32,000 nucleotides of DNA from Patescibacteria group bacterium (GCA_041674405.1 JBAYVT010000004.1:60001-92000), one strand, 5' to 3'; counted from the stretch's first letter, positions 1-17,999 are shown. Made by a program: numbers and translations. Notes: generated from the sequence alone by a model not told the origin.

Positions 1-3000
1 TTTGCGAATACGCTCTTTGAATTGCCGTTAAATATATTGAAGATATCGTCAGCGGTCAATCTTCCGGATCCTATTTGTGTTCCGATAGATTGGTTTACAG
101 AAGATGCGGCAAGCTTGTCGACTATGTTGTAGCCAGAAACCTTTAGGTAGTCGAGCGGGACTTGCCCACCGGAGCTATTTTTATTCTGCCTTGAAAATAC
201 CGCTTCGCTTTCTTCAGTCGAGATATTTAGCCCGAAGTCCAAAATCTTTTCAAATTGGATAAGATTAGCATCGCTAAATGGCTTGGACGATGTATTATCA
301 GAAACAAATGTGTCTAGGGCAGCTTTTATTTTATCAGCACTTCCATAATCCTTTAGGAAGTCTTTTGCCGCGGCAATTCCTTCGGCAGAAAATTGTGGCG
401 GGAATGACCTAAAATAATTTTCGAGGTAAGAAGGAACTCCGCTGCCTGTTTGTGAAGCTCCTTTAGATATGTCCAAAGATAACAAATAAACTGCGTTTGC
501 AATTTCGTCAGTATAATTTATTTTTTTATCATCGTTTGCGCTCTTGTATTCACTAGCAGCAGAATATGTGCTAAATATATGTTCGCCGGCTTTGTCGAAA
601 TACACGTAGCTATTGTCTGGTATGGTCGTGCCTGCGATATCGACATTTTGTATGGGCTGGCAGGGATTGTCAGGCGTTGCTGCTGCCATTAAGTAATTGT
701 TGTGGTCGACGAAGTAAATTTGGTTAACCCCAGGATTGTCATTTCCTCCCTTGTGTGTCATAAACGCCTTAATCGCTGCTTCGGAAACATGCATTTTTGT
801 TGCCAAAAGCCTGATAGTATCGCTGTCAGCTTCCGATTGGTCATATCCACCGATTTGTTGTCCGGTGATAAATTTCTCGGTCGTCCCGGCCGGCAGCTTG
901 CTTTTCACGTCATTCGCAATCGCCTTGGAGCGAGCCGAAGACCACGCGCTGAAGCTGTTGTTCATAAGGTCATCAAGATCAAATCCCTTTAGTCCCATGC
1001 CCGATGCAAGAATATTGTTTGCTTTGCTCCGGCTTATTTTCAATTTGTTTACCATGCCGTCACGAAGGTCTGCCAAAGATTTTGGTGACGACAGATCAGA
1101 TCCTGTTAAAATTGAGCTTCCGGCAACTCCAGCTTGCTCCTCAAGAGCTGCTGAACCGATGGCACGGAAAAAAATGTCTTTGAAACTTTGGCTGTTCTTT
1201 GCTTGGTCATTGTTTTTTGCCAGAGCCAGTGCGTCCGAAGCATATTTTAGGGCCTTTGAAGAGATCCCCAAGCTGCCGCTTAGTTTAGCTGAGGCAGCGC
1301 CAGATACTAAATCTTGCAAAGTAGTTTTTCCGGACAGGAACGAAACCAGGTCTCCCAATCCAAGCTTGGAGCCACCCAGATCGATGGAGGAAAACTTAAT
1401 ATCACTCAAGTGCAAATCTTCAATCTTAAAATCCGCCTGCTCGTTTCCAGTGGTGATCTCATATGCAGATTTTGTGATATCTTGTACATTCTGCATTACG
1501 CCATTGAGCTGGTGCAGATAATCGGAAAATGTTCCGTCATTGCTTGAAAGGCCTTCGGAGAGATCTGTAGATCCGGAAAATACCGGGGAGCTTGCTTCGT
1601 TAATGATACTGCCAATCGCGATTGCGGCTGTTGTTGTGTCTCCGCCTCCCGGGTTTGCATCAGCCTTTTCGGCAGCGGTCGCGAACACAGACAAAGCCTG
1701 TTTTAGAGCGTCATCCTTTGCTTTTATTGTGCTATTTAATTTGTCTGATACTGCGCTTGAAGCAGACGTATAACTTTGTATTCGTTGATTTAGAGTGTTC
1801 AGTGTGGACTTAATGCCGTTGATTCGGTCGGTATAATATGCCTGATCGCGAACATTTTTATTTTCTAATACATTTGAATTGTTTGCTTCTTGTGTTTTTT
1901 TATCGTCATAGCCCGAAGTCTCAAGTGCTTGCCTTAAGTTTTTTTGCCCTATTTTTTTGAAAGTACCGGCCGGGTCTGATCCTATGCCAAATAAATTTGC
2001 GAAATCGATCTGGTTTATGCCAAGCCTTGAGGCATAGGTTTGCACCTGGATTTGTGCGGTCTGCAAAGACGGCTCCTCTGCTGTATTGGTGGGAACATCT
2101 GTTGTAAATGTTGCATTTGGATTTTTAAACCAGTTGCTCAAATTTGTTCTTGATTGCTCGCCGTTTTCAAGAGCGCTCGATAGAGCAAAGATGCCAGCGT
2201 TCAATAACTGGTCCTGAGAAATTGTCCCCCCAAGAAAACTGGCCAGAGTGCCGGCAGGCAGATTAAAAATACTATCATTTTGGCCATATGAACCATTAAA
2301 GTTTTTGTATACATCCGCTCTTTTTGTGATGTAGCTTTCTGCAATTTGCTGTAGATAATTTGGAAGAGAAAGAACCCCGGCCTTAAGAGACGCTGTTGTT
2401 CCCGATCCCAAGCCGAAATCGGTATCGAGGGCACTTGGAAATGCGATTATGGTTGAAAGCTGGTTTTTTCCAATTGTAGAAAGCACATCATTAAGTCCGG
2501 ATTTATTGAATGATCCCGAGGCAAGGCCAAATTGATTTTCAATTAATCTTGCTCCGATTTGGCTATATAGGCTTGGCTGATTCATTGACTGAACGTCGAA
2601 AACTCCCTCTGGCAGTGAAAGTTCTTGAATTATTCTCTCTCTTCCGATTTGGGCGAGAATATCGGCCCTGTTCTCGCCGGTGAGTGAGCCGTAGGGGAGG
2701 CCAAGGGCTTGTTCTATCCCGGCCCTACCCAGAGATTCTTCGAGGCCATCAATATTTAAGACCGAACCATCCATAAATGGGCCAGAAGGCAACGATAAGG
2801 CTTCTGCAATTATCGAGCCGCCGATTTGTTGTAACGTACCGGAAAGGTCAAGGTTCCAAAAATCTGAATCAGTTCCAGAGTTGATGGTATTGGCAAGAAA
2901 TTGTTGGCCAACCAAGGTTAATACATCACTGAAACTATCTATGTTCATATTCTGTATATCAGAGAAATTCAGCCCGAGGCCAGATAGCATTTCAGTTATC

Positions 3001-4265
3001 GAGTCCTGGGACATTCTCTGTATTGCCGTATTGAAACTGGAATCAATCGCTGCCTTGTCTTTATTGTATCCTTCGGATGTTTGCCACAAGAGCTTAATGT
3101 TCATTGGAGGCTGGGGGATCTTGGTATCGCTGCCAATGCGGCGTTTTTTGATCAAGGTGCAGCGTATATCATCGATTTGCGAAATATCAAAAGCCTGCCC
3201 TGCATTATGCGCTGAAACTATCCGCGGGCTTTCATTGGTAATAATAAAATCTGAGATCGATTTCCCGTTATCATCAACGAGTTGCCCGCTTAAGAGGCTA
3301 TCCTTTTGCTGAATTCCTGCTTCCGCTGCTAGTTCCCCAACGCCAGAATTGTCTTCCTGTGCCTTGTATTCCTCAATTGTTTGTTCTGATTCGGCTTTTT
3401 TCTCACTGTCTTTTTGTTCGGCCACCTCAGATTCCCTGGAGAATTTGGTTACATCGTTTGTATAACTATTTCTAATCTTATCAACCTGAATTCGCCAGTG
3501 CCCGGCACCTCCAATGGGGCTATTTTTTGGACGGACCAGATAATTGAGGGTATCAATAATCCGTTTATCAATTTTGGTATTTATAATACCTTCGACAGCG
3601 GAAACCACATATTGTTTTCCTGAATCATCCTGCATTTGTTGAATCATTGATTCTTGGTCAGTTTCAAATATCTGTGCAAGAATATTTGGGCTTGCGAGAA
3701 GACGCTGTGTTAGATATCCCTGCGTGAAATATTTTGCGGATGCGTTGTCAGCAAATTTTGAAAAGCCTTCCCAGTCACTTTCGCGCATTTGGTTTAGGCT
3801 GCTTATGTCTTTGCCGGTTAAGCGTGAAAGCTCAGACGCATCGCTTTTAAGGTCTGGGAGAACAGAATTGACCAAAGCAATATTTTCCAGATCTTTCTTG
3901 TCGCTTGGGTTTAGAATTATTTTGTCCGACAAAATCAAACCGGTTGAGCTCGCATTTTTATTAAGTGGTGCAGGCGCAACGTATTGGGTGACTGGGGCTG
4001 CATCAGTGTCTGGGGTGGCAATCAACTCATCGGCAGGGAGCGAATCATCAAAATTATCTGTTGCCGGTCCGCTTGCGGGAACTGTATCTTTAGCAGATTC
4101 TCCGGAGTAATCAGCATCTGACCCAACCTGGTCATTTCCTGAATTAGCATATTGATCCTCTTCGAGTGCCTGCACAATCATGGGTTGGTATGGCAACATT
4201 ACCGAAGTTATGATTACAATCGGTATTACTAGAAAAGAAAACAATTTTATAAATTTATTTGTCAT
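1..4265 (-). CDS. Giant secreted/surface protein, partial (>1,421 aa; C-terminus lies beyond window start)
   Basis: Hand translation of the minus strand from ATG 4265-4263 stays open to position 1. It is missing from the ORF track because no stop lies in the window. The + strand ORFs listed for 702-4110 are short, mutually overlapping antisense artefacts. The N-terminus MTNKFIKLFSFLVIPIVIITSVMLPYQPMIVQA/LEE looks like a signal peptide or anchor. The ATG overlaps the upstream stop (4255-4257) by 11 nt. No family recognised. Confidence 0.8.
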   Translation of the reverse strand, partial: MTNKFIKLFSFLVIPIVIITSVMLPYQPMIVQALEEDQYANSGNDQVGSDADYSGESAKDTVPASGPATDNFDDSLPADELIATPDTDAAPVTQYVAPAPLNKNASSTGLILSDKIILNPSDKKDLENIALVNSVLPDLKSDASELSRLTGKDISSLNQMRESDWEGFSKFADNASAKYFTQGYLTQRLLASPNILAQIFETDQESMIQQMQDDSGKQYVVSAVEGIINTKIDKRIIDTLNYLVRPKNSPIGGAGHWRIQVDKIRNSYTNDVTKFSRESEVAEQKDSEKKAESEQTIEEYKAQEDNSGVGELAAEAGIQQKDSLLSGQLVDDNGKSISDFIITNESPRIVSAHNAGQAFDISQIDDIRCTLIKKRRIGSDTKIPQPPMNIKLLWQTSEGYNKDKAAIDSSFNTAIQRMSQDSITEMLSGLGLNFSDIQNMNIDSFSDVLTLVGQQFLANTINSGTDSDFWNLDLSGTLQQIGGSIIAEALSLPSGPFMDGSVLNIDGLEESLGRAGIEQALGLPYGSLTGENRADILAQIGRERIIQELSLPEGVFDVQSMNQPSLYSQIGARLIENQFGLASGSFNKSGLNDVLSTIGKNQLSTIIAFPSALDTDFGLGSGTTASLKAGVLSLPNYLQQIAESYITKRADVYKNFNGSYGQNDSIFNLPAGTLASFLGGTISQDQLLNAGIFALSSALENGEQSRTNLSNWFKNPNATFTTDVPTNTAEEPSLQTAQIQVQTYASRLGINQIDFANLFGIGSDPAGTFKKIGQKNLRQALETSGYDDKKTQEANNSNVLENKNVRDQAYYTDRINGIKSTLNTLNQRIQSYTSASSAVSDKLNSTIKAKDDALKQALSVFATAAEKADANPGGGDTTTAAIAIGSIINEASSPVFSGSTDLSEGLSSNDGTFSDYLHQLNGVMQNVQDITKSAYEITTGNEQADFKIEDLHLSDIKFSSIDLGGSKLGLGDLVSFLSGKTTLQDLVSGAASAKLSGSLGISSKALKYASDALALAKNNDQAKNSQSFKDIFFRAIGSAALEEQAGVAGSSILTGSDLSSPKSLADLRDGMVNKLKISRSKANNILASGMGLKGFDLDDLMNNSFSAWSSARSKAIANDVKSKLPAGTTEKFITGQQIGGYDQSEADSDTIRLLATKMHVSEAAIKAFMTHKGGNDNPGVNQIYFVDHNNYLMAAATPDNPCQPIQNVDIAGTTIPDNSYVYFDKAGEHIFSTYSAASEYKSANDDKKINYTDEIANAVYLLSLDISKGASQTGSGVPSYLENYFRSFPPQFSAEGIAAAKDFLKDYGSADKIKAALDTFVSDNTSSKPFSDANLIQFEKILDFGLNISTEESEAVFSRQNKNSSGGQVPLDYLKVSGYNIVDKLAASSVNQSIGTQIGSGRLTADDIFNIFNGNSKSVFA

Positions 4266-5268
4266 GAAGGGCCCATAGTCCTTTTATAAGTCCGCTATTT
4301 AATTCGCTGGCAGGCGAATATCTGGCCGGCCGGCCGCGCGACGCTTCGGCTGAAGGATCGTTCAGTACTAAGAATTTGTCGTCTTTGCTCACTCCGATAA
4401 TTACAACCCAGTGTTGGCCGGTAGCCCGAAAGGCTGTAATACCTTGTGCTAAAATTGGATTTCCAGCGGCAATCTCTTTTTTGACCGAGTCTAAATTTCG
4501 AGGGACCTGTGCGAGCTCTTTGTTTAACCCTTTACTGTTTATGTAGCTGACCCAAGTAGCCTTGTCGAGCGCCATGCTGTGGTTTGTGTCAGCCAAATAC
4601 TGGCCTAAAATATAGGGGGTTATTCCGGAAACTCCATAATAATTTGCAATCATTGCGGATGATGTAATTGCACACGCAGCACCTGCATACGAATTACGTT
4701 TACTGCTCCATCCTGCTGCTTGGCCAGGTTTGTCTCCCCATCTGGGATCGCCTTGATTGAAATACCATTTTGTCGGATCTCCAGGAACCGTTATTGAGTT
4801 GCCAAGAACTTGTTTTATATCGGCGGCATCAGCCTCGCTATAAACCGAAGCATCGATTGGCTGAGATTTTCCATCCATTCCACGATTTGATCCTGACATT
4901 CTGCCAAAGGCAGGGACGGTTATGAAAAATATTAGGAGAATGACAATGGCAATTGTGGTTAATGTCGGCCAGTTTGCGATCAAAAATGTTTTCAAAAAAT
5001 TTTTGGTCGCGAATTTTAGTGCTTTGTTCGATAAATTATCCAGCGCTTTGCCAATAACCGGTAGTCTCTTTGCTGCCTCCCACGCTCCGCCAGTTGCTGC
5101 ATCAAGCGCCTTGTCTTTGCCTGCATCGATTGCTTTATTAAGGACCTTGTTGCCGGTAACGCCGGAACCAGAACCGGATTTTGCCGCCGTTATGGCCGAG
5201 CCTCTCTCGTTTGGGCGCGGAGCCTCTGATTGTCCATCTAAATTTTCGTTATTAAATTCTTCTGGCAT
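4255..5268 (-). CDS. Membrane-anchored C39-like (Peptidase_C39_2-type) cysteine peptidase, putative cell-wall hydrolase
   Basis: Start moved to ATG 5268 (MPEEFNN...), 2 nt after the upstream TAA (5271-5273), with GGAGGAAA just upstream. One TM segment (WPTLTTIAIVILLIFFITVPAF). NQGDPRW...AGAACAITSSAMIANYYG and GQHWVVIIGVS...LNDP match the Cys/His signature of the C39-like family. Confidence 0.75.
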   Translation of the reverse strand: MPEEFNNENLDGQSEAPRPNERGSAITAAKSGSGSGVTGNKVLNKAIDAGKDKALDAATGGAWEAAKRLPVIGKALDNLSNKALKFATKNFLKTFLIANWPTLTTIAIVILLIFFITVPAFGRMSGSNRGMDGKSQPIDASVYSEADAADIKQVLGNSITVPGDPTKWYFNQGDPRWGDKPGQAAGWSSKRNSYAGAACAITSSAMIANYYGVSGITPYILGQYLADTNHSMALDKATWVSYINSKGLNKELAQVPRNLDSVKKEIAAGNPILAQGITAFRATGQHWVVIIGVSKDDKFLVLNDPSAEASRGRPARYSPASELNSGLIKGLWALHDK

Positions 5269-5270
5269 AT

Positions 5271-6419
5271 TTAGCTCCAATTTCCTCCATATTGAAAATG
5301 CATTGCGTCGCATACTCCCTTAAATTTTGCTCCCCAAAAAAACCCGTTTTTTTCAAAAGCATCTGAAACAGCTTTGGGAATATCATGGGGGCACCCTGCT
5401 GGGTCACGAGGCCTTCCGGATCGTCTTCCATTGGGATTTTGGCCTGGATTAATATCACATGCTGCGCCAGTTGAGTGTGGGCTAAGAAGGCTGGGGCTAT
5501 TCACATTGTGCCTCCAGTTATAACATCCAATATCTTTGATCTTGTATGTTGATCCACTACTTTTGATATCATTTACAACATTTTGGAGGGCAGGAACTAT
5601 ATACTTATTTACTCGAATTGAGTGGCCGAGAAAATTGAAATTAACTAGCTGCTTTTCTACTTCATTTTGTGTTTTTGAATGAAGAGCAGACTGAGCCTGT
5701 GATAATGACTTCCAGATTCCCACCTGTCCACTGCTTCCCGGACCATAACCACGAAAGTCTAAAGATCCGGAGACAAAATTATTAACTGGATTGGGGCTGG
5801 AACATTGTATTTGCCCAGGAACCAATTGTTTTAGAAAAGTGAAAAATATTTCCCTGTCTTCCGAGACATTATTTCTTGAATCAGATTCCGGCGTATATGC
5901 ATCGATCCACCAAGTTTGAATCGCGGTTCCGGCAGGGCGATTTCCATAAGGCGCAACATTATCTCGTGCTTTTGTCAGGGTTTTTACATGTTTTGTGAGC
6001 TGGTCCTCGAAGGATGTGCTACCAGGAGCGACGCCAAACGCATAGCTTGGTTTGCCAAAGTTTTGCTCCTTGCCCCATGTGGCGATTGCTACAGCCGGAT
6101 TTACACCAGCGGCCCTTGTGGCCTGAAGGATCTGATCAATACGCTCCTTGGAAGGCATGATACTTCTTCCGCCGAGTTTGGAGATTACAGAAGCAGAATC
6201 TGGAATTTCAGATGTGGAAGGACTTGTCCAGTTCTGATCTGGCATAACACATTCACCACCACCCCCCATAGCCAAGGGGGTTTCACCGGTGTTTTTGCGC
6301 ATTGTTGCAAATGTCATGCCAGCAGCTGTGCCGGCGACGAGGAATGTCAAAACTGCGCTGATTCCAATTGCAATCACCACATTTCCTCCGGATCGTGAAT
6401 TTAATTTGGCTCCCTCCAT
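5271..6419 (-). CDS. Membrane-anchored peptidoglycan hydrolase: C-terminal M15 (VanY/LAS-type) metallopeptidase plus an uncharacterised N-terminal domain
   Basis: ATG 6419 is preceded by GAGGGATAA. N-terminal TM segment (VVIAIGISAVLTFLVAGTAAG). SPHSTGAACDIN (SxHxxGxAxD, H-x6-D) and CDAMHF give the LAS/M15 zinc-ligand pattern. The N-domain segment AAGVNPAVAIATWGKEQNFG weakly resembles glucosaminidase/lysozyme-like domains (low confidence). Confidence 0.85.
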   Translation of the reverse strand: MEGAKLNSRSGGNVVIAIGISAVLTFLVAGTAAGMTFATMRKNTGETPLAMGGGGECVMPDQNWTSPSTSEIPDSASVISKLGGRSIMPSKERIDQILQATRAAGVNPAVAIATWGKEQNFGKPSYAFGVAPGSTSFEDQLTKHVKTLTKARDNVAPYGNRPAGTAIQTWWIDAYTPESDSRNNVSEDREIFFTFLKQLVPGQIQCSSPNPVNNFVSGSLDFRGYGPGSSGQVGIWKSLSQAQSALHSKTQNEVEKQLVNFNFLGHSIRVNKYIVPALQNVVNDIKSSGSTYKIKDIGCYNWRHNVNSPSLLSPHSTGAACDINPGQNPNGRRSGRPRDPAGCPHDIPKAVSDAFEKNGFFWGAKFKGVCDAMHFQYGGNWS

Positions 6420-6430: not shown

Positions 6431-7702
6431 CTACAAACCTGTTTGATACAAATGGTTATTCGAAACAAAGTATAGAGTTTTGTTGTCCTTCGAAATCGAA
6501 AGTTCTGTAATATATACGCCCGAAAGTGGAATCGAGAAACCGATTTTTTGTTTAGAATCTACATTAAATTTAAACAAACTTTCTTGCTGTGTCTCCGGGT
6601 CATAGGTAGCGACGGCGATATTGGAATTATCAATCCAAACAATTTTGGAGATTATCGCTTTTATTCCAAGATCTCTGGCGTTTGATCCGTCGCTATTCAT
6701 AACGGATACCTCTGATTTAACTGGATTTGAAGGGTCATCCGAGGTGGTTGTGTAGATAATTTTATTACCATCTGGCGAATATAAGGCTTCTTGGTTGTTG
6801 CCAGTGTCGGTAATATTTTTTACAGCCATCGTGTAAGCATTCAAAAGATAAATTTTGTTGCCGCTTGCATCGGTATTGCGTGGGATAATAAGCAGCCATT
6901 CTGACGAAGGCGACCATCTAAGATATGGGTTTGTAATGCCGTAATCTTTTAGGTTGAGGGCACGTTTGATGTTTGTGTTTGCCTTGTCCGCGAAAATGAT
7001 TGATTGTTCGCCCGAAGATGGGGCATATGAATAAGCAATCTTGGAATCGTCTGGTGCCCAGGCGACATTACCGATATCGTCCCCAAATTTAACTTCCTGT
7101 TGGCTGACAAAATTATATTTTTGAAAATCAAAAAAGTATGCGGCGCTTCCTTTCTGAAAGAGGGCAGCATCTTTCTTGGGTCCCCAGACAATATTCGTAA
7201 TTCCGGAAAAACCAGGATTTGATATCTGTCTTACATAGTCTACACTGCGGTCAGATTTGAACTGGATTTTGTAAAGTGCTGATTTGCCGCTTCCTAGAAA
7301 CATAAGCGAGTCATCTTCATCACCGGTTGTGATATTATCTACCGGCAAATCTTTAATGTTACCAAGTGGCAGGACAATCGGTTTTGGTACCTCGACAAGA
7401 TCAACTTGCACAGATTTACTGCGCCCGCCACTCAGAGTCAAATTCATAATTTGCGTTACGTATCCGTTTTTCTTGACAGTCAGAACATGATCGCCGGGTT
7501 TTGTGGTAATCTTGGCCGTGCCGTCAGGCAGGGTGCTTACAGGGGCGCTGTCAAGCAAAATGTTGGCGTCTTGCGGGGTAAATTTGACCGACAGAGTAGA
7601 TCGGTTCAGGAGAATTATTAGGACCACCGCTGCAACCACTAAAATTCCCAAAAGCAGATACGCTTTTGATCTTAAAAAATTCATTTCGTCTGTGATTTTC
7701 AT
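6431..7702 (-). CDS. Membrane-anchored PEGA-domain + PD40/TolB-like beta-propeller protein
   Basis: Start moved to ATG 7702 (MKITDEMNF...), 1 nt after the virB4 TAA (7704-7706), with GGGAGAA upstream. TM segment AYLLLGILVVAAVVLIILL. PEGA-like segment KPGDHVLTVKKNGYVTQIMNLTL. Repeated PD40-like motifs WAPDDSKIAYSY, WSPSSEWLLI, YSPDGNKIIYTT, MNSDGSNARDLG. Confidence 0.8.
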   Translation of the reverse strand: MKITDEMNFLRSKAYLLLGILVVAAVVLIILLNRSTLSVKFTPQDANILLDSAPVSTLPDGTAKITTKPGDHVLTVKKNGYVTQIMNLTLSGGRSKSVQVDLVEVPKPIVLPLGNIKDLPVDNITTGDEDDSLMFLGSGKSALYKIQFKSDRSVDYVRQISNPGFSGITNIVWGPKKDAALFQKGSAAYFFDFQKYNFVSQQEVKFGDDIGNVAWAPDDSKIAYSYAPSSGEQSIIFADKANTNIKRALNLKDYGITNPYLRWSPSSEWLLIIPRNTDASGNKIYLLNAYTMAVKNITDTGNNQEALYSPDGNKIIYTTTSDDPSNPVKSEVSVMNSDGSNARDLGIKAIISKIVWIDNSNIAVATYDPETQQESLFKFNVDSKQKIGFSIPLSGVYITELSISKDNKTLYFVSNNHLYQTGL

Positions 7703-7703
7703 A

Positions 7704-9551
7704 TTATTCTCCCAATAATTGTTTCGGATCCGTGGTGATGATTTGATCTTCGGCATATGATGCAACAATTTTTATGGCGACATGGTTTAAACCGGCGAAA
7801 AACAATCCTTCGCCTACATCCGATTGCAATAGAATATATTTTTCCCCCTCCGTAAGGCCGAAAGTCTCTGCGATTACATCGATTGACGAAGTGGATTGCT
7901 TCATGAGCATCTGCATAGAAGAGTTGGCAACCACTGCTTTTCCATATCTTGAACCTAAGAAATCTTCCACATCTTGGCTGATCACGGTAACTCCAAGGTA
8001 GTATTTGCGCGCCCGTTTTACTAAGCCGTGTAAGAATTTGGCAGAATCTTCGTATTGCATCATCCACCAAGCTTCATCAATAACCATCAAGCGGCGGCGC
8101 ATATCCATGCGGATTTTGGTCCAGATATAATTTAATATCAGATACATCGCGATCGGCCGAAGTTGCTCTTCGAGATCGCGGACCGAAAACACCACAAAAC
8201 CAGGCTTGAGTTCAAAGTTGGTAGTCTGGTTGAACATGCCAGCAAACGTGCCTTCGGTATATTTAGACAACCGCGCCCTCAAAGACTCGCTGCTGCCCAT
8301 ATTGGACAGAACATTGTAGAAATCTTGCATCACTGGCGGCTCATTTTTTTGGCTCTCTGGGTCGGTAGTAATGTCTTTGATCGCATATGTCTCATACAAA
8401 CCCTTATCTACCAGAGCGTCTTCTTCTGGGGAAAGTCCACCAACCATAAGATTGATGAGTCCGTGCAACGAAGAGATGGTTGACCTTAGAACATCATCTC
8501 CCGATTCTTCTCCTGATTCGGAATGGGGAAGATCAAAAGGGTTAATGCGATGCTCGGCATTTAAAGAAATGCTTAGATAACTGCCCCCGACGGCCTCACA
8601 GAGCGACTTATATTCATTTTCTGGGTCAACTACGACCACATCTGTTCCCGACATCAAATAGCGCAAAATTTCAAGCTTAACTGCGTAAGATTTACCAGAG
8701 CCGGACTTTGCAAAAACCACTGAATTGGCATTTTCCAGATCAAATCTGTCAAAAATTATCAAAGAATTATTGTGGCGATTGATCCCGTACAATATTCCGT
8801 CATCCTGGGTAAGCTCAGTAGATGTAAACGGGAAGGTTGATGAGAGTGATCCAGTATCAAGGTTGCGAAGAACACCGATTTCATCAGTCATCAGAGGAAG
8901 GGTGGTGTTGAAACCCTGTTCCATCTGCAGGAGTGTTTGTTTGGAGTAAACTAGCATGCCGCCGAGAGTAGATTCAAGCTGTTCTGTCAGGGTGTTGAGA
9001 TCGTCTGGGGTTTTTCCATAAATTGTGAAATATAATCCGAACTGGAACAACCTCATCTCACCTCGTTGTAACACGTCACGCAAGGACTCAACATCTCCTA
9101 GTGCTGTTTCCATTTCCGGATCTCTTGGGGCACCCTTCTCTTGCTCGATCATCATCGTTGACTCAAGTTTTCCGACTTGTTTTTTAAGGTCATACATGAC
9201 ATCTTTTGACTCGAGCGGGTGAATATACATCCCAATATCCATCGTAAGATCATAATCAATGATTGGGGAAAGCCAATTTGTATCTAGGTAACGCGGATAG
9301 GTAAATACGAATAAAGTTTTGATAAAATACTCACCCAGTTGCAGATAATTCGGTGTCACAACAAAAGCTGCCGGAGCGATGAGGTCACGCACCGAAGATA
9401 ATCCCTGCGATACGGCATCGATTGTTTGGTCGGTTGCCTTATCGGCCCAGAATTTAGGATCCGAAGCTTGTTTTTCTCGCTTTGCAATGTTTTTTTGGGC
9501 AAGAGCTCTTGGGTCCTGGGTTGCTATTTGTTTTTGATCGTTATCAGCCAT
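7704..9551 (-). CDS. virB4: VirB4/TrbE/PrgJ-family type IV secretion ATPase
   Basis: Walker A is FAKSGSGKSYAV and Walker B is LMVIDEAWWMM. The N-domain is typical of VirB4 (YFIKTLFVFTYPRYLDTNWLSPII). The track start at 9563 is TTG. ATG 9551 lies 1 nt after the upstream TAA (9553-9555) and is preferred. Confidence 0.95.
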   Translation of the reverse strand: MADNDQKQIATQDPRALAQKNIAKREKQASDPKFWADKATDQTIDAVSQGLSSVRDLIAPAAFVVTPNYLQLGEYFIKTLFVFTYPRYLDTNWLSPIIDYDLTMDIGMYIHPLESKDVMYDLKKQVGKLESTMMIEQEKGAPRDPEMETALGDVESLRDVLQRGEMRLFQFGLYFTIYGKTPDDLNTLTEQLESTLGGMLVYSKQTLLQMEQGFNTTLPLMTDEIGVLRNLDTGSLSSTFPFTSTELTQDDGILYGINRHNNSLIIFDRFDLENANSVVFAKSGSGKSYAVKLEILRYLMSGTDVVVVDPENEYKSLCEAVGGSYLSISLNAEHRINPFDLPHSESGEESGDDVLRSTISSLHGLINLMVGGLSPEEDALVDKGLYETYAIKDITTDPESQKNEPPVMQDFYNVLSNMGSSESLRARLSKYTEGTFAGMFNQTTNFELKPGFVVFSVRDLEEQLRPIAMYLILNYIWTKIRMDMRRRLMVIDEAWWMMQYEDSAKFLHGLVKRARKYYLGVTVISQDVEDFLGSRYGKAVVANSSMQMLMKQSTSSIDVIAETFGLTEGEKYILLQSDVGEGLFFAGLNHVAIKIVASYAEDQIITTDPKQLLGE

Positions 9552-9552
9552 T

Positions 9553-10662
9553 TTACCAGCCAAAATCTTTATTTAATGCAGGATCGCTATCTGGATCATT
9601 TGTGGCTTTCGGGTTCACTGGTGGATTGTTAGGTTGGGGAGGTGTTTGCCTGTTCTGTGGCGGTTCATTAATACTTGTGCCGGATTCTTGTGATTGCGCT
9701 TTAGTTTGGGTTTCCGCAGTCTGGCTTTGTGGTGTGGCCGGCTTCTCTTGCGCCTCTGCTGCCGGTGGAGCCGGTGCGGTGCTCGGTGCGTTGGAAGAAT
9801 TTGTGTTTGCGGATACCGTATTGTTTGAAGTCGTCGGCGCTTTCATGTCTCTTTCTGCGTTTTTTTCTATCGCCTGTTGTCTTTCTTCCTGTTCCTTTTT
9901 CTGCTGGGCATTAACTATTTCTGTGTTATCGATTGTAGATTCATCTTCAATCTGGCTGGGCTCGAGAGCCTCGTCTTCTTTGTCTTTTGTGTGTGTAACA
10001 AAAGCTGAGGCGAAAGTATTTGCTTCTTCTGCAAGCCTTTCCTTGCCGGCAACCTCGGGATTGTACGTGCTGTAAAGAAGCTCAATCACTTCTTGTGTAT
10101 TTAGTTGCTTGCAATGTAATCCGATCGAGCCGAGGCCCTGGGCGACGGTAGTAGCGCGCTGCTTTAATTCGGTTGTGTATCGGGCATAGTCTTCTTCGGA
10201 AACCCTGAGCTGGGCAGTTTCATTATTCTTTTTGAAAAGCTTATCCAATATTCCGCCGTTATTTGTGACCAATGGCTGATAACCGACGGTTACGTAAAAA
10301 GTTTTTTTCATAATATTGGCTAGGTTGATAAGCTGAGAGACGAAGTCGACATAATCTTCTGTTTGCAACTTCAAAAGCTCGTTTTTCTGTTTTTCCGCCA
10401 ATTTCTTAATCTTGTTTAAATATGGGGTCAAATCCAGTTTTTTTGATGAAATCAAAATCTCAATCGGAAAATGAAGCGAATTTAAGAAGCTTTGGTAATT
10501 AAAAATAATGCTATTTTGCTCTTGCTCGCTCTTTAAGTCGAAATTTATAGCAGCAACAGACATGACAATGCGGTATTGCCCGTTTCTCAGAATAACTATC
10601 CCGTCGCGAATGCCTGCGACCAAAACGTTTTCTTGGGTTGTGGGAGCTTTGACGGTAGCCAT
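9553..10662 (-). CDS. T4SS-associated protein: N-terminal ~230 aa resembling a VirB4 N-domain without ATPase, plus a disordered P/Q/T/N-rich tail
   Basis: ATG 10662 lies 2 nt after the upstream TAA, with GAGGT upstream. The pattern DGIVILRNGQYRIVMSVAAINFDLKSEQEQNSIIFNYQSFLNSLHFPIEILISSKKLDL resembles N-domains of VirB4/TraC-type proteins. No Walker motifs. The last ~130 aa are low complexity (APAPPAAEAQEKPATPQSQTAETQT...). Confidence 0.75.
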   Translation of the reverse strand: MATVKAPTTQENVLVAGIRDGIVILRNGQYRIVMSVAAINFDLKSEQEQNSIIFNYQSFLNSLHFPIEILISSKKLDLTPYLNKIKKLAEKQKNELLKLQTEDYVDFVSQLINLANIMKKTFYVTVGYQPLVTNNGGILDKLFKKNNETAQLRVSEEDYARYTTELKQRATTVAQGLGSIGLHCKQLNTQEVIELLYSTYNPEVAGKERLAEEANTFASAFVTHTKDKEDEALEPSQIEDESTIDNTEIVNAQQKKEQEERQQAIEKNAERDMKAPTTSNNTVSANTNSSNAPSTAPAPPAAEAQEKPATPQSQTAETQTKAQSQESGTSINEPPQNRQTPPQPNNPPVNPKATNDPDSDPALNKDFGW

Positions 10663-11184: not shown

Positions 11185-12675
11185 TTATTCTATCGGTGAA
11201 AGAATGTTCGTTTCATTGGCAAGAGCGCCGAGAAATGCACCGCCAACTGCTAGCAGGCCCGTGCTAGATGCCTGGGATTCCGGAGTTGGATTTTGTTTGT
11301 CGAAACCGCCCCAGCCATCATAATATCCCATTGAATCCAAATCCAGCCCATCAAAATCTTCGCCTAAATGGCCTTTTTCTGATTGGACGATTCTCTTTAT
11401 GGTGTTATAAAAAACTAAGTACGATTCGATTGCGCGGGAGATCCCGGGATGTTCCGTCCTTAACTTTTCTATTGAAAAATTTCCGCCGGCGATACCTTCG
11501 GCAATTTCGGCATATTTTGTACTAATTTCTCCTGATTGATCTGTATCCGATTCACTAATGCCGAGTTCTGAACTGGAGAAACGGCTGAAACTGCCGGGAT
11601 CGAGCTTTTTAAGGCATACCTCTAAAAAGCTCAAGAAGCTTCCATCGCTCTGGAGATAAATGGCAGTGTAATCGGTTACAATTTCTTCTGCTGCCATGAT
11701 TTCGCGCGACTTTGTGAACTTTTCTTCCGACCCCCATTTTGCTTTTTCTGTCGGTGAGAGTGAATTATATTCCGATTTTTCCAAGCTCTTAATCACGTTT
11801 CTGACGTGTTGCGGCTGAAAATCAATATAATCTTTTGCATTTCGAATGATTTCTTTTGCCTCTCTAAGCGAAATCTCGATCGGAGAATTGGCATTTTCTT
11901 CATCTGCTTCGGATTCTTTGTGTTTTGCGACAGCGACTATTCCGTGGGATATCTCGTGGTCGATCATTTGAACAAAATCCAAGCTCAGGATTTTTCCTTC
12001 GGAAGTTGCAAAATTATCTTTCAGGGCAGATCTCGAGAGTTTGATAACCCCTCCCCCAAAAGACATAATCCCTTCATAACCAGCCGAGGCTCGAGATTCG
12101 TCCTCTAAACTATCGGATATTTCAACATTTTGAACGAGTGTACAGACATCATTAGCGGTAAGGTGCCCATTGATTATCGGGAGAGATAGGGCATAAAGGA
12201 TCTCTGTTTTTTTACTCAATACTCCCGAATACTCAGGGTTTTTTGATAACTCGGAAATAGCGGCATCTGAATCTTGAAACAGCGCTTCTGAACGTGCGAT
12301 AAAAATCGCCGTCTCAGTGAGAGCGCTACTAGATGGCGCAGACTCTCCGTATCGCTCTTTTAATATCGCATAAATTTTTTCAATCAGGTAAGAATTCAGA
12401 TTTTCGTCCGATATATGATTGAGGAGAATTGCAAAAACTTCTCTCTTGTCCAGGGAGTGGCTTTTATTTTCGTGAGTCATTCTTTTCGTTGCTTCGAGAA
12501 TAGAGGGACGATTCTGCTCGGTAATTTCAACTTCACCGGAATGATCTATCTCCGGTTCTGCCCCTTCCTGGCCTTCGTTGCCCCCTTCTGGTTGTTCTCT
12601 TGTTTGATCCGCTTCCGAAATTTCTGGCGATTGTCCAGGTGGGCCAGCAGAAGGGTTTGGGGCGTCAGTGGCCAT
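11185..12675 (-). CDS. Acidic T4SS-associated protein with an HExxH motif (putative metalloprotease-like) and a hydrophobic C-terminus
   Basis: 496-aa ORF starting at ATG 12675. Highly acidic N-terminus (EGGNEGQEGAEPEIDHSGEVE). MIDHEISHGIVAV contains HEISH. The C-terminal STGLLAVGGAFLGALA could be a membrane anchor. No family recognised. Confidence 0.75.
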   Translation of the reverse strand: MATDAPNPSAGPPGQSPEISEADQTREQPEGGNEGQEGAEPEIDHSGEVEITEQNRPSILEATKRMTHENKSHSLDKREVFAILLNHISDENLNSYLIEKIYAILKERYGESAPSSSALTETAIFIARSEALFQDSDAAISELSKNPEYSGVLSKKTEILYALSLPIINGHLTANDVCTLVQNVEISDSLEDESRASAGYEGIMSFGGGVIKLSRSALKDNFATSEGKILSLDFVQMIDHEISHGIVAVAKHKESEADEENANSPIEISLREAKEIIRNAKDYIDFQPQHVRNVIKSLEKSEYNSLSPTEKAKWGSEEKFTKSREIMAAEEIVTDYTAIYLQSDGSFLSFLEVCLKKLDPGSFSRFSSSELGISESDTDQSGEISTKYAEIAEGIAGGNFSIEKLRTEHPGISRAIESYLVFYNTIKRIVQSEKGHLGEDFDGLDLDSMGYYDGWGGFDKQNPTPESQASSTGLLAVGGAFLGALANETNILSPIE

Positions 12676-12706
12676 GACAGCCTTTCTTTTTTATCGTCAA
12701 ATTATC

Positions 12707-15421
12707 TTATTCGGGATTTGCGCTTGGTGGTTCTGCGGGGGGAGTCGGAGGGGGAGTCGGTGTTGAATGGGTCTCAGGGCGTGGGGTAGACGGCGCCTCT
12801 ACGGTAGTATTGTTGTTGATCACAGTTGTGTTCTGAACTGGGTTTGGCCGAACCGCATCAACGGCCCTTGCAGGTGATACGCGTGAAGATGCTTTTGCTG
12901 TGGCGCTGCCGATTTCGCGAGCAAGAGATTTTTGGAATCTTTCACTCATTAGTGTTGATGCGAGCGAATCCCCGCCGGAAACCCCCGAAGCAGCGGCAAC
13001 GCTTCCCAGGATGGAACTTGCCTGCATCGGTGAGTACGAAACAGCTGCTCCTCCTCGAGCTGCAGCGGTGGCTTGTGCAACCTGGTTCACATGTTGGGTC
13101 AACGCTTCGATATGATCGGAACCTTCGGCAAAGCCATCGCCAACCGAAATATTCTCAAATTGAGAAGCTAATTGCTTGGTTTGGTCGGCCATGCTCTGCA
13201 TCGATAATCTGGCGGAGGCAGTAGCTTCGGCAGCAGTTCTTAGTTCGGTCTGTTTGGAAGTCTGAAATTGTTTAAGAGAGTCTGACCAGGCTCGCCCTTC
13301 TGTTGAAGTCAGTTGTCCGGAAGCAGCCATTGATCTTGCGTTTACGGCTGCCTGCTGAACCTGTTGAAACGTTGAAGCTAACTTTTGTTTGGCGGCGGGA
13401 TCGCTCGTGCTAATTTTGGGTACTCCCATCTTACTAGCAATTTTGGCCGCCTCTTCAATATCACCAGCCTGAAGCTTGCTTGCGCCTGCGGCAGCATCCT
13501 GAGAAATCAATGCCAGCTTAGACCCTAGACCTTGTGGGGAAACACCGCTCATTTGGCCACGGATTAGCCTCAAACCTGCAATTTGGTCTTCGATTTGTTG
13601 GGCTCCTGCTTCAACCTCTTCGTTAACCATGGAATCACGAGCCTTCCTAACATCTTCAAAGTGTTTTCGGAGTTCTTGTTGCGCTCCAGGACTCATTGCA
13701 GCAACATCACCACCCAATCTTTGAGCCAGTTGGTCAAAATTTTCATTGCTGTGCATTGCGGCACGAGAGACCTGATCAGCCTGTGCACCAGCAAGAGCCC
13801 TAATTCCCTGGCTTGCACCGCTGATAGATGCAGCTTCTGTAGTAGCTTGGGCAGCTGCCTCAATTTCTTCACCAACAGGAGAAGAAAATCCGGAAGCATC
13901 CATGTTTCTGTTTCTTTTTCGCAAAGCTCCGGTTGTAGGATCTCTGGACTCGTCGGTTCGGAATCTCCCTTTTTCTTTACTTACAGCATCAATACTTTCC
14001 CCATTAAAAAATTTCAAGGCTTCATCATGTCCGTCGGCACTGGAATTTCCAGCCCTTCTGGTAAGTTCCTTATACTTCGCCATATATTCCCTTGATTGCG
14101 CCCAACTCATCTTTTTGTCTCTAAATAATTTTCCGTTTTTTCCTGGAGTTGCAACTTCGCCTGTTTCAGGATCGATCTCCATCGCTCCGGCCAACTTAGA
14201 AACTTCTTCATATTGCCAGGTTTTTTGTTCATCGAGAGAATCAGCCCTTAATGCGGCCCTTACTCGACCCTGGGCTCCCTTTGGCAATTTTCCGCTCATC
14301 ATAAGATCAAAGTACCTCTGGTTGAGTGCCTCTTTCTCGTACTTAGCTCTCACGTCCTGCGGAATTTGCTTAGCGGCTTTTCTATTCATCATCATCTTAC
14401 CCAAACGAGTCAGCTGAAAATCTCCTTTTTTATCATGATATCCGATCATCCTGTTCTGGGCTCTGGTTTTGACATTGTCATATTTTTCCTTCGCAAAATC
14501 ACCGGCGTATTTGGCAGCCCGACCGCCTGTCTTATTCCATCCCCATTTGCCAAGGTTGTTCCATGCTGTCATCACGCCTTTACCCATCATTTGTGGAGTG
14601 GTGATGGCAAGATAAAAACATACGCCTGCAAAGAGGATAGATAAAAACGAAAGGCCTGGGTCTCCGTCCGTTAAAGGAGCTAGCCATCTGCCGCCCACCC
14701 AAAGCCAGAAGAGGGACACAACCGGCATAAATGTCCATTTCCAGAACATTTGCCACCATTGATTAAAAACGGACTTAGAGAGGGTTAAGACGCTGGCCAT
14801 AAATGCGAGCGGTGCCAGTGCAACTAAGAAATATAGAACATAATTTCTAACGAAAAAGAAAAATGCCAGAACCAGCACCATTATCGCACCAGCGAATTCA
14901 ACCAAGGTCAAGACAAGAAAAAGGCCTATTTGTTTCCAATTGAGTGCCCCATTTGTTACCAGGGTGCTTTTATCGAAATTAGTAAGGAATGCCCCAGAAA
15001 TTCCATAATCATTATTACCTATTCCAGCTCCACCTGCAGGAGAATTTATCAGCATGCTCATCGCTGCGCTCGACAAGTCGACAATAAAGCGGCAAATCAA
15101 GTAACTGAAGTTTGCAAGAACAACAGCCATCACCAGTGCGGGCAAGAATTTTTTGATCCCGTATGTATTTATGTTTAGCTGTAAAATGTTGGCAAATGCG
15201 ATAAAGATAAGAGCGGCAATCACAACATAATTTACCATGCTGCGGATAGATTCCCAGACCTCTTTGATTGTTGCCGAAGGACCGGTTGTGCCTTGAAGTA
15301 CCTGGTAGAGTAACTCAGCGTGAGCATGAGCTGGAAAAGCAAGCGTTATCACAAAAAGAATCAGGATGATCAAGTTTGCCATAGCCACGATTCGATAAAA
15401 TTTTTGCGATTTTGCACTCAT
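12707..15421 (-). CDS. VirB6/TrbL/TcpH/ConG-like polytopic membrane protein with a ~550-aa Ala/Gln-rich helical extension and Pro-rich tail
   Basis: ATG 15421. Signal-like N-terminus (LILFVITLAFPAHAHA), then about 7-8 hydrophobic helices within the first ~300 aa. The size and position relative to the PrgI-like and VirB4 genes match Gram-positive VirB6 analogues. The C-terminal half is Ala/Gln/Ser rich and ends PTPPPTPPAEPPSANPE. Confidence 0.7.
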   Translation of the reverse strand: MSAKSQKFYRIVAMANLIILILFVITLAFPAHAHAELLYQVLQGTTGPSATIKEVWESIRSMVNYVVIAALIFIAFANILQLNINTYGIKKFLPALVMAVVLANFSYLICRFIVDLSSAAMSMLINSPAGGAGIGNNDYGISGAFLTNFDKSTLVTNGALNWKQIGLFLVLTLVEFAGAIMVLVLAFFFFVRNYVLYFLVALAPLAFMASVLTLSKSVFNQWWQMFWKWTFMPVVSLFWLWVGGRWLAPLTDGDPGLSFLSILFAGVCFYLAITTPQMMGKGVMTAWNNLGKWGWNKTGGRAAKYAGDFAKEKYDNVKTRAQNRMIGYHDKKGDFQLTRLGKMMMNRKAAKQIPQDVRAKYEKEALNQRYFDLMMSGKLPKGAQGRVRAALRADSLDEQKTWQYEEVSKLAGAMEIDPETGEVATPGKNGKLFRDKKMSWAQSREYMAKYKELTRRAGNSSADGHDEALKFFNGESIDAVSKEKGRFRTDESRDPTTGALRKRNRNMDASGFSSPVGEEIEAAAQATTEAASISGASQGIRALAGAQADQVSRAAMHSNENFDQLAQRLGGDVAAMSPGAQQELRKHFEDVRKARDSMVNEEVEAGAQQIEDQIAGLRLIRGQMSGVSPQGLGSKLALISQDAAAGASKLQAGDIEEAAKIASKMGVPKISTSDPAAKQKLASTFQQVQQAAVNARSMAASGQLTSTEGRAWSDSLKQFQTSKQTELRTAAEATASARLSMQSMADQTKQLASQFENISVGDGFAEGSDHIEALTQHVNQVAQATAAARGGAAVSYSPMQASSILGSVAAASGVSGGDSLASTLMSERFQKSLAREIGSATAKASSRVSPARAVDAVRPNPVQNTTVINNNTTVEAPSTPRPETHSTPTPPPTPPAEPPSANPE

Positions 15422-15436
15422 TTGATTCTTGCCTAT

Positions 15437-17329
15437 TTAGTTGCTAGCCAAATTTTCATATTTTCCGGAATTAACCATGTTATTATAAACTTCTGAAAAC
15501 AAAAGATAATTGTTCGCTCCTGTTCCCGCTAAGATGGCCTGGGAAGAGTAAATCGAGGGGACAAGATTCGCGGCTTTAAAAGTTGCAGTCAGCGTAGAAG
15601 TTAAGTCATCCCAGCCCTCAAAGGTAATAGTGGCCGATGAGTTATGTTGGCTATTTGGTATCCAATTTTTGGCTTGGTCTAAGGGTCCGATCTTTGCCCA
15701 AACACTGCCCCGTTGAGTCTGTGCTGCAGTCTTCAGTGCAGAGTACTTCGCAACATTTCTAAATTGAATTTTTGCTCGTAATACGTAGGCATAAGAGCTT
15801 CCTCCGCCTCCTGTTCCGCCTGCGGCGGTTCCGCTATCGGTTGTACCACCGCTAGGTGTACCACTAGTGGAATCCGTTCCAGTTCCGGAGGCTTCAGAGC
15901 TGGCAGGAGAGCTTTGTGGCTCACTGGCCTTGGCGCAGACATCAGTTTTGTTTGCCGAGGCTGATCCCGTTGCCTCGTCAGTGACTCCAAGCGATTTTTC
16001 CATTATTCCAAGTGACCAACAATAAAACGCGTTTGCCCAATTGTTTAGTATTATTGTCAGGCCGCAAAATGCACTAGCGATCATATTTACAATATATGAT
16101 TGGTCCGACACGTCGCATTCAGTTTTTCCGTCATTGGTCGAATTTAATCTTCCAGCATCCCAGAAACCCCTTGGGCCCATAACTAGCTGTAAACTGCAAT
16201 TTTTTGCTGCCGGGTCGCTAATACTTCCGTCAGCTCCAATCGTAACTTCATAATTCTGGTTCATAAAAATTTCCATATTGTTTTCTGTGGCTTGTCTTGC
16301 CTCTGACCAATCTTTGAAACCTCCTTGTGTGGGAGTATCGGGTCGGGTGACACTGTTCGGCTGGTCAGGGTTGTCATTTTTTAAGAAAAATTCCGGCATA
16401 ATTTTATAAGTTCCGGCCGGAAGGCCAGAGAGATCTGCGGACCACTGACCACTGGGTGTTCCCTCATTTGAAATCAAAACATATCCTTTGGAAATATTTC
16501 CCATCGAGGCATTTACATATGTATCAGTTGCAATTTTGAATTGGATGTAAACTGGCACATCTAGTGTCCTTGTGGCACCGGCGTCCATAAAATCCCCCGG
16601 CCATTGGACCTTGTCTTTTGGAGCCAGTTTTTTATCATTCTCAGAAAGTTTGTCCCAATAAACTGATTTCGAAAAATCAATCGCTGCAGTTCCACAGATT
16701 TTAGTACCATTGGGGATTTTTTGGGTATAAAAATTGTTAACTTTTTGGAAAATTCCAGCCACATTGCTATTTTCAGCACCAACTCCACCGTTCATATAAA
16801 AGATATAATCTTTCATGCTTTGATCAAGAGTAGGGAGCTCTTTTGATGAAGTGCCCATGGTACTCGGAAGTACCTCATACGTTTTATTATCAGTCCCCCT
16901 GTGTAACCAGAGGTAAAAATCCTTACCCTGAAGGCTTTCCTTTTTGTACAACCCCAGGGTTTCGGCATTTTTAAAACGAACCCCCAGGTAGAATCCTGCT
17001 TGTCCTTGCATCTGATACATCAAGATGCCTTCGTCATCGGTGATACCCCCTACGGTTGCAACAACAGGTGGTAAACCATTAAATGGTTTACCTGCCTTCC
17101 ATAGCTCACCAGAAATCTTTTGGGGAGATGAAAATTTGTGGCCCGTTTCTGTTGCCCCCAATTTTTCTGTAATAGTTGTGGAGGAAACGTCGAAGTAATA
17201 ATCATATTTTTGGCCTGGTGTGGGAATCATGGCTGCGCGCGCGCGGGGAGTTGTGTATGTAAACAACCCAAATAAGTTTGCTGATAGCAGCAAAACAGAT
17301 AAGGCCAAAGAATAAATTTTTTTAATCAC
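15437..17329 (-). CDS. Secreted/cell-surface protein of unknown family (630 aa)
   Basis: GTG 17329 follows GGAGGGGAT. Signal peptide MIKKIYSLALSVLLLSANLFGLFTYTTPRARA. One internal hydrophobic segment (IVNMIASAFCGLTIILNNWANAFYCWSLGI). A Ser/Thr/Gly-rich linker (SGTGTDSTSGTPSGGTTDSGTAAGGTGGGG) and a ~130-aa C-terminal domain. Confidence 0.8.
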   Translation of the reverse strand: MIKKIYSLALSVLLLSANLFGLFTYTTPRARAAMIPTPGQKYDYYFDVSSTTITEKLGATETGHKFSSPQKISGELWKAGKPFNGLPPVVATVGGITDDEGILMYQMQGQAGFYLGVRFKNAETLGLYKKESLQGKDFYLWLHRGTDNKTYEVLPSTMGTSSKELPTLDQSMKDYIFYMNGGVGAENSNVAGIFQKVNNFYTQKIPNGTKICGTAAIDFSKSVYWDKLSENDKKLAPKDKVQWPGDFMDAGATRTLDVPVYIQFKIATDTYVNASMGNISKGYVLISNEGTPSGQWSADLSGLPAGTYKIMPEFFLKNDNPDQPNSVTRPDTPTQGGFKDWSEARQATENNMEIFMNQNYEVTIGADGSISDPAAKNCSLQLVMGPRGFWDAGRLNSTNDGKTECDVSDQSYIVNMIASAFCGLTIILNNWANAFYCWSLGIMEKSLGVTDEATGSASANKTDVCAKASEPQSSPASSEASGTGTDSTSGTPSGGTTDSGTAAGGTGGGGSSYAYVLRAKIQFRNVAKYSALKTAAQTQRGSVWAKIGPLDQAKNWIPNSQHNSSATITFEGWDDLTSTLTATFKAANLVPSIYSSQAILAGTGANNYLLFSEVYNNMVNSGKYENLASN

Positions 17330-17996: not shown

Positions 17997-17999
17997 GAA

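Follow-up and report, generated by a model that had tools for sequence, protein, structure and literature searches.

The last gene of a type IV secretion system (T4SS)-like operon in a Patescibacteria group bacterium encodes a giant protein of 2,429 amino acids (aa) which, judging from its sequence features, has a probability of about one half of serving the Patescibacterial T4SS-like machine as an accessory that is tethered to the membrane and spans the wall or contacts the host. The operon lies in a stretch of 32,000 nucleotides (nt), called the window here and analysed at its full length (GCA_041674405.1 JBAYVT010000004.1:60001-92000; G000:C4:60001-92000), from a 929-kb genome in 7 contigs that is 98.7% complete. 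The T4SS operon itself is known; what is new is the giant, as a proposed T4SS envelope accessory from an undescribed family with an unrecognised fold. We argue from the integrity of the gene, its linkage to virB4, the hydropathy pattern, the helical prediction, the conservation of motifs and the fast divergence of the protein, all of which were observed.

On the minus strand of the window a reading frame runs uninterrupted from the ATG at 4265 to the window edge (window 3..4265, 1,421 codons, 3'-open), and it is the window's largest, the runner-up being 904 aa. Extension along the contig reached a stop, and the full frame that the original prediction had asked to be recovered is intact: 7,290 nt at L002:11976-19265(-) = C4:56976-64265, with the 2,429-aa product P0002. 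Aligned to Logan contigs from four runs (landfill 2018, 2019 and 2022; groundwater 2022), which cover it, the gene shows 0 indels, and a single contig of run X1, possibly the source of the assembly, spans it entirely. At 24 loci of other species, frames of 2,200-3,170 aa were found wherever the contig permits, and dozens of relatives have intact frames of 2,200-3,200 aa at the same locus position. The gene is real. A frameshift or assembly artefact, one of two ways in which the original prediction thought it might fail, is ruled out by the indel-free contigs of the four runs; the other, homology to a housekeeping S-layer protein, was looked for as well and not found. Landfill run X1 also holds short, low-depth contigs of a second strain, which cover the core and the repeat region and are 6-8% divergent, mostly through synonymous transitions; 11 of the 15 differing sites listed are synonymous, the pattern that purifying selection on a translated gene would give. 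In the database the gene (P0003, 2,401 aa) begins at Met29, without the hydrophobic N-terminal segment. Because such a segment is present in 184/209 long family members, the ATG at 4265 is the better start. Automatic annotation would miss export of the protein, since the public call omits the signal peptide (window 4167-4265).

The original prediction placed the gene at the end of a T4SS-like operon and in overlap with a hydrolase gene, and both statements hold. The giant's ATG (4265-4263) and the TAA of the preceding gene, for a C39-like peptidase (4257-4255), overlap by 11 nt, which suggests coupled translation of the two. Upstream on the same strand are genes for an M15_4 peptidase, a PEGA/PD40 propeller protein and VirB4, then a separate TrsD-like gene (related to the VirB4 N-terminus) and prgI. 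On the 3' side lie a convergent zinc-ribbon gene and, beyond it, dciA, recF, dnaN and dnaA; the giant gene closes the operon, which abuts the replication-origin genes. The giant's stop is 82 nt from the end of the zinc-ribbon gene, and in that gap lies a GC-rich, terminator-like hairpin (L002:11921-11944, 3,056-3,079 nt before the window start), which could terminate both convergent transcripts. The locus combines an MPF_FATA-like VirB4 with TrsD and PrgI, is chromosomal and near dnaA, and has no relaxase or coupling protein in the window. It is the known T4SS of the Patescibacteria clade (PMC10633639, PMC12102498), with which it also shares the wall hydrolases and PEGA-domain protein downstream of virB4 and a cluster that abuts dnaA/dnaN/recF. 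In S. epibionticum the T4SS cluster SEML1_0006-0019, likewise without coupling protein or relaxase, is essential for epibiotic growth, and transposon sequencing (Tn-seq) found the system to be essential including the large genes just downstream of virB4 (Wang et al. 2023, PMC10633639). Neither PMC10633639 nor PMC12102498 mentions the giant family ('giant' and 'large protein' have 0 occurrences), and no description of it was found among the papers searched.

Relatives were collected with a word-indexed search and with an exhaustive profile search that used the conserved core of the protein. The word-indexed search found 11 relatives only, all of 2,400-3,100 aa and without Pfam domains, vs 268 cluster representatives in the core profile search, 175 of them at E <1e-30; the best 150 of the 268 are mostly 1,400-3,280 aa long. 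Annotation of the homologues reads 'hypothetical protein' in every case, and the giant gene is single-copy. Among class genomes of the window, a match was found in 129/162 species: relatives in the window's own order are full-length, and those in the rest of the class are 1,400-2,900-aa proteins that share mainly the core. Depositors labelled these genomes Candidatus Berkelbacteria, Saccharibacteria/Saccharimonadales or 'Patescibacteria group'. In a phylum sample of 251 genomes, matches outside the class came from 8 only (family f57 6/6, f111 1/1, f61 1/6).

The order PrgI-TrsD-VirB4-(hydrolases)-PD40-giant is retained in 24/24 related loci whose flanking sequence is long enough, most of them with the dnaA block after it. 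In four more distant class members the giant is 2-7 kb downstream of virB4 (4/4) and near dnaA-side genes in 3/4. Coordinates were compared in further class genomes, namely those with both genes listed on one contig; in 25/25 the homologue lies on virB4's strand, 2-10 kb downstream of it. Although the genes in between have been rearranged many times, the giant keeps its position, and does so in two classes. A test of co-occurrence with VirB4 was dropped as uninformative, VirB4 being near-universal in the class (155/162 genomes). In family f57, from another class, the T4SS core (VirB6-like candidate, PrgI, TrsD and VirB4) is on one strand, and directly beside it, on the opposite strand, is a PD40-like gene followed by the giant; this propeller-giant unit is divergent from the core at L031:7553-20000, L032:7181-19295 and L033:3-8358, where the window has a single co-directional operon. 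From this arrangement the propeller-giant pair looks like a separable module attached to the T4SS. Between loci VirB4 is 73-83% identical and the giant 24-34% identical; the giant therefore evolves much faster, and by the alignments its divergence is that of a surface-like protein.

Such divergence, together with export and a low-complexity composition (S+L+G+A+N = 46% of P0002), is also what might be expected of a general surface protein, an S-layer-like coat or host adhesin merely co-transcribed near the origin and independent of the machine. Location beside oriC is believed to favour higher expression (PMC12102498), and the class genomes with VirB4 and no homologue, counted below, would suit such a protein. 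Against it, the position beside virB4 is conserved through rearrangements in two classes, translation is apparently coupled to that of a T4SS-associated hydrolase gene, and the single-copy giant has no S-layer, SLH or adhesin domain that we could find; we regard an independent surface protein as improbable.

The N-terminus of P0002 is a signal peptide or anchor (Kyte-Doolittle 2.4 over residues 1-33) followed by an acidic stretch with 15 D/E vs 1 K/R in 67 aa, as the original prediction had it. This linker has a conservation of 0.18-0.27 and a predicted local distance difference test score (pLDDT) of ~30 at the start of the AlphaFold model. A helical N-domain comes next, and after it a GGAGH block with His256 at 3498-3500; G252-H256 is invariant within the order, and the block is confined to the long-N subfamily. 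The two AlphaFold halves of the protein are nearly all helical (pLDDT 68.7 and 61.3). The earlier statement that the chain has no repeats or nameable domains stands insofar as no domain match was significant, and needs amending in two respects: a degenerate ~29-aa unit recurs, and a LAS/M15-like core is present at ~318-425. Beyond the four tandem units of the Table, degenerate "GLPxGT" copies of ~29 aa extend to residue 2273. A model built from the ~29-aa units found up to 7 copies in relatives (median 1 at a strict cut-off) and 0 in shuffled sequences. There are no DNA-level repeats in the giant gene.

Two adjacent hydrophobic helices, outside the window, start right after the last GLPxGT motif and end NLFGVYK. 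This hairpin (residues ~2258-2296) sits ~140-200 residues from the C-terminus in most relatives, where it is strongly hydrophobic (Kyte-Doolittle 2-3.3). Among the 125 relatives that carry the C-terminal domain, two helices (or one stretch of at least 36 aa) occur in 108, one in 7 and none in 10; a further strongly hydrophobic segment occurs in 6/125 only. The C-terminal domain, ~135 aa long and modelled as a small alpha/beta unit, was detected in 125/221 members. Cys2305, Cys2395, Cys2408 and His2426 were invariant in a first alignment of 11 sequences, the chain end follows H-[IVL]-[GRA]-[FYW], and conservation over the last 180 residues ranks among the highest in the protein (0.42-0.53). Of the C-terminal sorting signals that the original prediction had proposed to look for, LPXTG is absent; P0002 ends THVGF. 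A papain/CHAP-like Cys2305...His2426 pair was rejected: it has no profile support, and the model places Cys2305 in a strand.

These features bear on the earlier suggestion of a secreted effector, here taken as an effector or polymorphic toxin that the apparatus would deliver to its host. Size and terminal position in a secretion operon fit it, as do weak feature neighbours in the ESM Atlas among toxin translocation domains. However, the C-terminal domain is among the most conserved parts of the protein, with no variable toxin tip; Pfam shows no toxin domain; no immunity-like gene is adjacent, the next gene being convergent and followed by the replication genes; and a Sec signal peptide combined with a hydrophobic hairpin points to a protein that stays in the membrane. 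With 1-2 hydrophobic helices before the conserved C-terminal domain in 115/125 relatives, a freely secreted protein is disfavoured, and we consider delivery as an effector highly improbable. For a pilus-tip or needle component, also suggested earlier, nothing shows such a role.

We infer the giant's topology, wall binding and host-contact role from these sequence features as follows. The signal peptide would take the N-terminus across the membrane by Sec export, and ~2,200 residues of helical hairpin repeats and bundles would lie outside the cell. In most relatives the hydrophobic hairpin would tether the chain to the cell's own membrane, with the ~135-aa Cys/His domain outside, where its cysteines could form disulfides. 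Were the signal peptide cleaved, the LAS-like module would be the distal end of a long helical stalk; were it uncleaved, the ectodomain would be a loop tethered at both ends. The giant, the PEGA/PD40 (TolB-like) propeller and the M15_4 and C39-like hydrolases would together make up the wall-crossing, host-facing part of the apparatus. The giant is the best candidate for the wall-spanning or host-contact part because it is encoded with two wall hydrolases and a propeller.

The family-defining core is the best-conserved block of the family (conservation 0.71). It has, in order, the motif SxHxxGxAxD (S351-x-H353-x-x-G356-x-A358-x-D360, nt 3186-3215), Cys369-Thr370 and WQT (residues 394-396, nt 3078-3086). 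Among ~190 members His353 and Asp360 are each present in ~96%, Gln395 in 100% and Cys369 in ~85%. His256 and Cys369 co-vary: the pair is H/C in 84 members, and wherever Arg replaces His256 (6/6 members), residue 369 is Val or Ile. A subgroup of 2,300-3,200 aa (L030:9763-10893, P0103, P0121, P0122, P0124, P0130 and P0141) has Arg256 and Val/Ile369, some of its members also being without His353 or Asp360; this joint loss hints that the residues form one site. When 148 core segments were scanned singly against Pfam, the matches were to Peptidase_M15_4 (29 segments), Extensin-like_C (19), VanY (12) and Peptidase_M15_3 (8), all of the LAS/Peptidase_MD clan; DUF5715, whose clan is unconfirmed, was matched by 6/148, and every other family by at most 2. 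The negative control, 103 C-terminal domains, gave scatter only, no family drawing more than 2 members. A profile search of the PDB aligned the core motif to the zinc motif of the Sonic hedgehog N-domain (E 1.6), a narrower, deeper hhalign query aligned the core to the SPHSTGAACD motif of the operon's own M15_4 protein (P 0.0018, probability 15%), and Peptidase_M15_3 was the sole named set among Atlas feature neighbours of the core (score 0.83). The core has in common with LAS metallopeptidases the SxHxxGxAxD motif with the first two zinc ligands (H-x(3-6)-D, of which SxHxxGxAxD is the M15B/VanY-type form). It differs from them in lacking a conserved His after Asp360 as third ligand (HxH or [DE]xxH in the clan), where Gln395 of WQ[ST] is invariant instead and the operon's own M15_4 protein has DAMH; the LAS fold, a central antiparallel sheet with the metal site, is putative for P0002. 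The core probably descends from a LAS-type wall peptidase, and from the motif pattern we conclude that it would be either non-catalytic, as a stem-peptide-binding site, or equipped with an unusual ligand set. A YkuD-like His...Cys dyad (His353-Cys369, 16-residue spacing) was discarded, having no profile support and with Cys369 replaced in ~15%. In the accessory that we propose, this diverged module, which keeps His-x6-Asp and has the invariant Gln in the place of the third His, would recognise peptidoglycan stem peptides, and cleavage would be at best atypical.

If the core were catalytic, the giant could be a VirB1-type wall hydrolase in which His353, Asp360 and perhaps Cys369 or His256 cut stem peptides and open the wall. 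The near-universal His-x6-Asp, the co-variation of Cys369 with His256 and the LAS-clan enrichment of the Pfam matches speak for such an enzyme, and so does the need of Gram-positive T4SSs for a large membrane-anchored hydrolase; the virB4-adjacent S. epibionticum gene with a Hedgehog/DD-peptidase domain is essential. We nevertheless hold a hydrolase to be rather unlikely: the third His is lacking while Gln395 is invariant, the operon already has canonical M15_4 and C39-like peptidases, the catalytic module would be <5% of the protein and leave the other ~2,300 residues unexplained, and the His256/Cys369 co-variation may reflect a single clade. In SEML1_0007, the S. epibionticum protein in question (1,113 aa, gene adjoining virB4), the Hedgehog/DD-peptidase domain is C-terminal (residues 951-1105), whereas P0002 has its LAS-like core near the N-terminus and is twice as long. 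PrgK (pCF10), TraG (pIP501) and CwlT (ICEBs1) resemble the giant as membrane-associated, exported, wall-directed proteins of monoderm-type T4SS operons, but they have lysozyme/SLT and CHAP or NlpC/P60 domains, neither detectable in P0002, which is 3-6x longer; and in the giant's operon, unlike theirs, the task of hydrolase falls to distinct genes, M15_4 and C39-like. No SLT, glucosaminidase, CHAP or NlpC/P60 domain was found in P0002 or in 38 relatives (full-length or N-halves).

Searches with the whole protein or its pieces gave no significant match. Pfam and NCBIfam gave nothing for full-length P0002 and five overlapping pieces at E up to 5, and Pfam gave no match for five divergent full-length relatives. 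PDB sequence profiles gave coiled-coil noise only for both halves and the C-terminal domain. The original prediction had called for structure prediction with Foldseek; helical models were obtained and no known fold was matched. Foldseek against the PDB found nothing below E 0.2 with either AlphaFold half, an ESM Atlas shape search gave template modelling scores (TM-scores) of at most 0.2 by query, and a wide VIA-align search returned generic helical hairpins and four-helix bundles only. The giant family has no significant fold or sequence match to known proteins and is undescribed. Two sets of matches below significance deserve mention. In Foldseek against BFVD the top rows were nearly all tape-measure or minor tail proteins (E 0.003-0.1, TM-scores 0.05-0.11, not significant), and the Atlas feature neighbours of residues 2230-2429 include toxin translocation and colicin pore-forming sets (scores 0.61-0.75, a lead only). 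On the models, the tape-measure matches are to be taken as analogy, not homology.

The analogy invites a further reading, in which the giant is a tape-measure-like translocator comparable to phage tape-measure proteins, type III secretion system translocators and colicin-type hairpins. The giant would then be a trans-envelope conduit whose LAS-derived module docks on or opens the host peptidoglycan, while the hairpin, together with the C-terminal domain, inserts into the host membrane and so forms the conduit or primes it. Long helices, an embedded wall-enzyme-like module, the hydrophobic hairpin and a small C-terminal domain parallel tape-measure proteins, a parallel that rests on what we take to be the architecture of phage T5 Pb2. 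Along with the BFVD and Atlas neighbours, the marginally hydrophobic hairpin of P0002, with an Asp per helix as in hairpins that insert conditionally, is in keeping with this. However, the matches are not significant, with TM-scores of 0.05-0.1, and tape-measure proteins are the commonest long helical proteins in the viral library; the giant has no sequence homology to them and no phage context; and the strongly hydrophobic hairpin of most relatives should stop in the cell's own membrane during Sec export. A host-membrane translocator is in our judgement unlikely.

Comparison with other large or exported T4SS components was likewise negative. Of the adhesin or apparatus role first proposed, an exported, T4SS-linked surface or envelope protein remains the best reading; the marks of a PrgB-type adhesin do not, since P0002 lacks LPXTG and a hydrophobic stretch with basic tail, and Pfam finds no adhesin or immunoglobulin-like domains. 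In the Patescibacteria dataset of a 2025 survey (Quinonero-Coronel et al., PMC12102498), PrgB and other adhesins went undetected. The giant is not polytopic as VirB6/PrgH-type proteins are, its hydrophobic parts being the N-terminal segment and one C-proximal hairpin vs at least 5 transmembrane helices, and P0002 has no Pfam match to the C-terminal domain of VirB10 (TrbI). CagY of the H. pylori cag T4SS is a very large, largely alpha-helical, repeat-bearing, envelope-spanning protein with a conserved C-terminus and a fast-changing exposed part; its C-terminal end is a VirB10 domain, and its variation arises when DNA repeats recombine. The giant is like CagY in size, helices and repeats and differs in having no VirB10 match and no DNA-level repeats and in belonging to a monoderm cell; CagY-style variation was dropped as an idea, no such repeats having been found. 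For a polymorphic toxin, the C-terminus is conserved where it should be variable. By its sequence the giant is thus not a VirB1-like, PrgB-like, VirB6, VirB10/CagY or polymorphic-toxin member, a defining feature being missing in each case.

Several findings weigh against a membrane-tethered accessory and keep our estimate near one half. The function proposed is without significant homology, and by gene order alone a component of the machine could not be told from a surface protein under shared regulation. VirB4 occurs without a detectable homologue of the giant in about 20 good-quality genomes of the class, and the ~1,440-aa variants have no C-terminal domain by hidden Markov model, which means that the giant is not indispensable in this form. 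The P0002 hairpin is weak (Kyte-Doolittle ~1.5, one Asp per helix), and a stable membrane tether in P0002 is therefore uncertain. The LAS link is sub-threshold: the best E is 0.0042, no Pfam gathering score was reached, and P0002 itself matches 0 families. A wider core query in hhalign gave a probability of 0.2% against the operon's M15_4 family. In the AlphaFold model the core motif (model residues 252-274) has pLDDT <50, with short strands flanking it, and LAS structures are absent from the Foldseek and VIA-align results.

Table. Coordinates of the giant gene, its parts and neighbouring operon genes (window numbering unless a contig or locus is named).
Feature	Position	Strand	Remarks
Giant gene, 5' part	window 3..4265	-	codons 1-1,421 of 2,429; intact in independent contigs
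Giant gene, remainder	L002:11976-15002 = C4:56976-60002		1,008 codons + stop; before window start
Signal peptide or N-terminal anchor, residues 1-33	4167..4265	-	Lys-containing n-region, 22-aa hydrophobic core, VQA before Leu34
Acidic linker, residues 34-100	3966..4166	-	Pro/Ala/Asp-rich, low-complexity; poorly conserved
Helical N-domain, residues ~115-250	3516..3923	-	pLDDT 75-89; helices H26-150 of model m82feeca96b03
Family-defining core, residues 318-425	2991..3314	-	candidate degenerate LAS/M15-type (Hedgehog/DD-peptidase) module
Four tandem ~29-aa units, residues 477-594	2484..2837	-	'IGxxxIExxLGLPxG[ST]'; each modelled helix-turn-helix
Long four-helix bundle, residues ~798-944	1434..1874	-	
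Second-strain contigs	L002:17430-17593, 17889-18039 = window 2430-2593, 2889-3039		
C39-like cysteine peptidase, membrane-anchored	4255..5313	-	Pfam Peptidase_C39_2 1.5e-10; stop inside giant's first codons
M15_4 peptidase	5271-6419	-	same operon
PEGA/PD40 propeller protein	6431-7768	-	same operon
VirB4 ATPase	7704-9563	-	NF045971, 7e-107

VirB4 is split in the window, a 369-aa TrsD-like gene overlapping the start of the 619-aa ATPase gene (7704-10662, -). In family f5, with ~700-kb genomes, the stop-to-stop frame over TrsD-like and VirB4 is 880-911 aa, and the two parts may be fused there. Upstream of prgI are three genes without Pfam or NCBIfam match, for proteins of 496, 904 and 630 aa (window 11185-17329, -). 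Weak relatives of the 904-aa protein are encoded upstream of prgI in other classes too, and from its position and sequence the protein may be a VirB6-like channel subunit. Beyond the T4SS block are genes for BacA, PAP2, a Xer-type integrase, a Mur ligase, FemAB, TsaD and a class I tRNA synthetase; the gene for the recombinase, of the Xer/phage-integrase family (19412-20482, +), adjoins bacA and the PAP2 phosphatase gene at the upstream end of the block.

Patescibacteria account for much of bacterial diversity and apparently live on other microbes. The giant is a concrete candidate for the part of their T4SS-like machine that crosses the wall or touches the host. If the less likely conduit reading were true, it would be the channel by which biosynthetically crippled epibionts take host material. 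With at least 268 sequence clusters that have neither annotation nor a recognisable fold, this undescribed family is a clear structural target.

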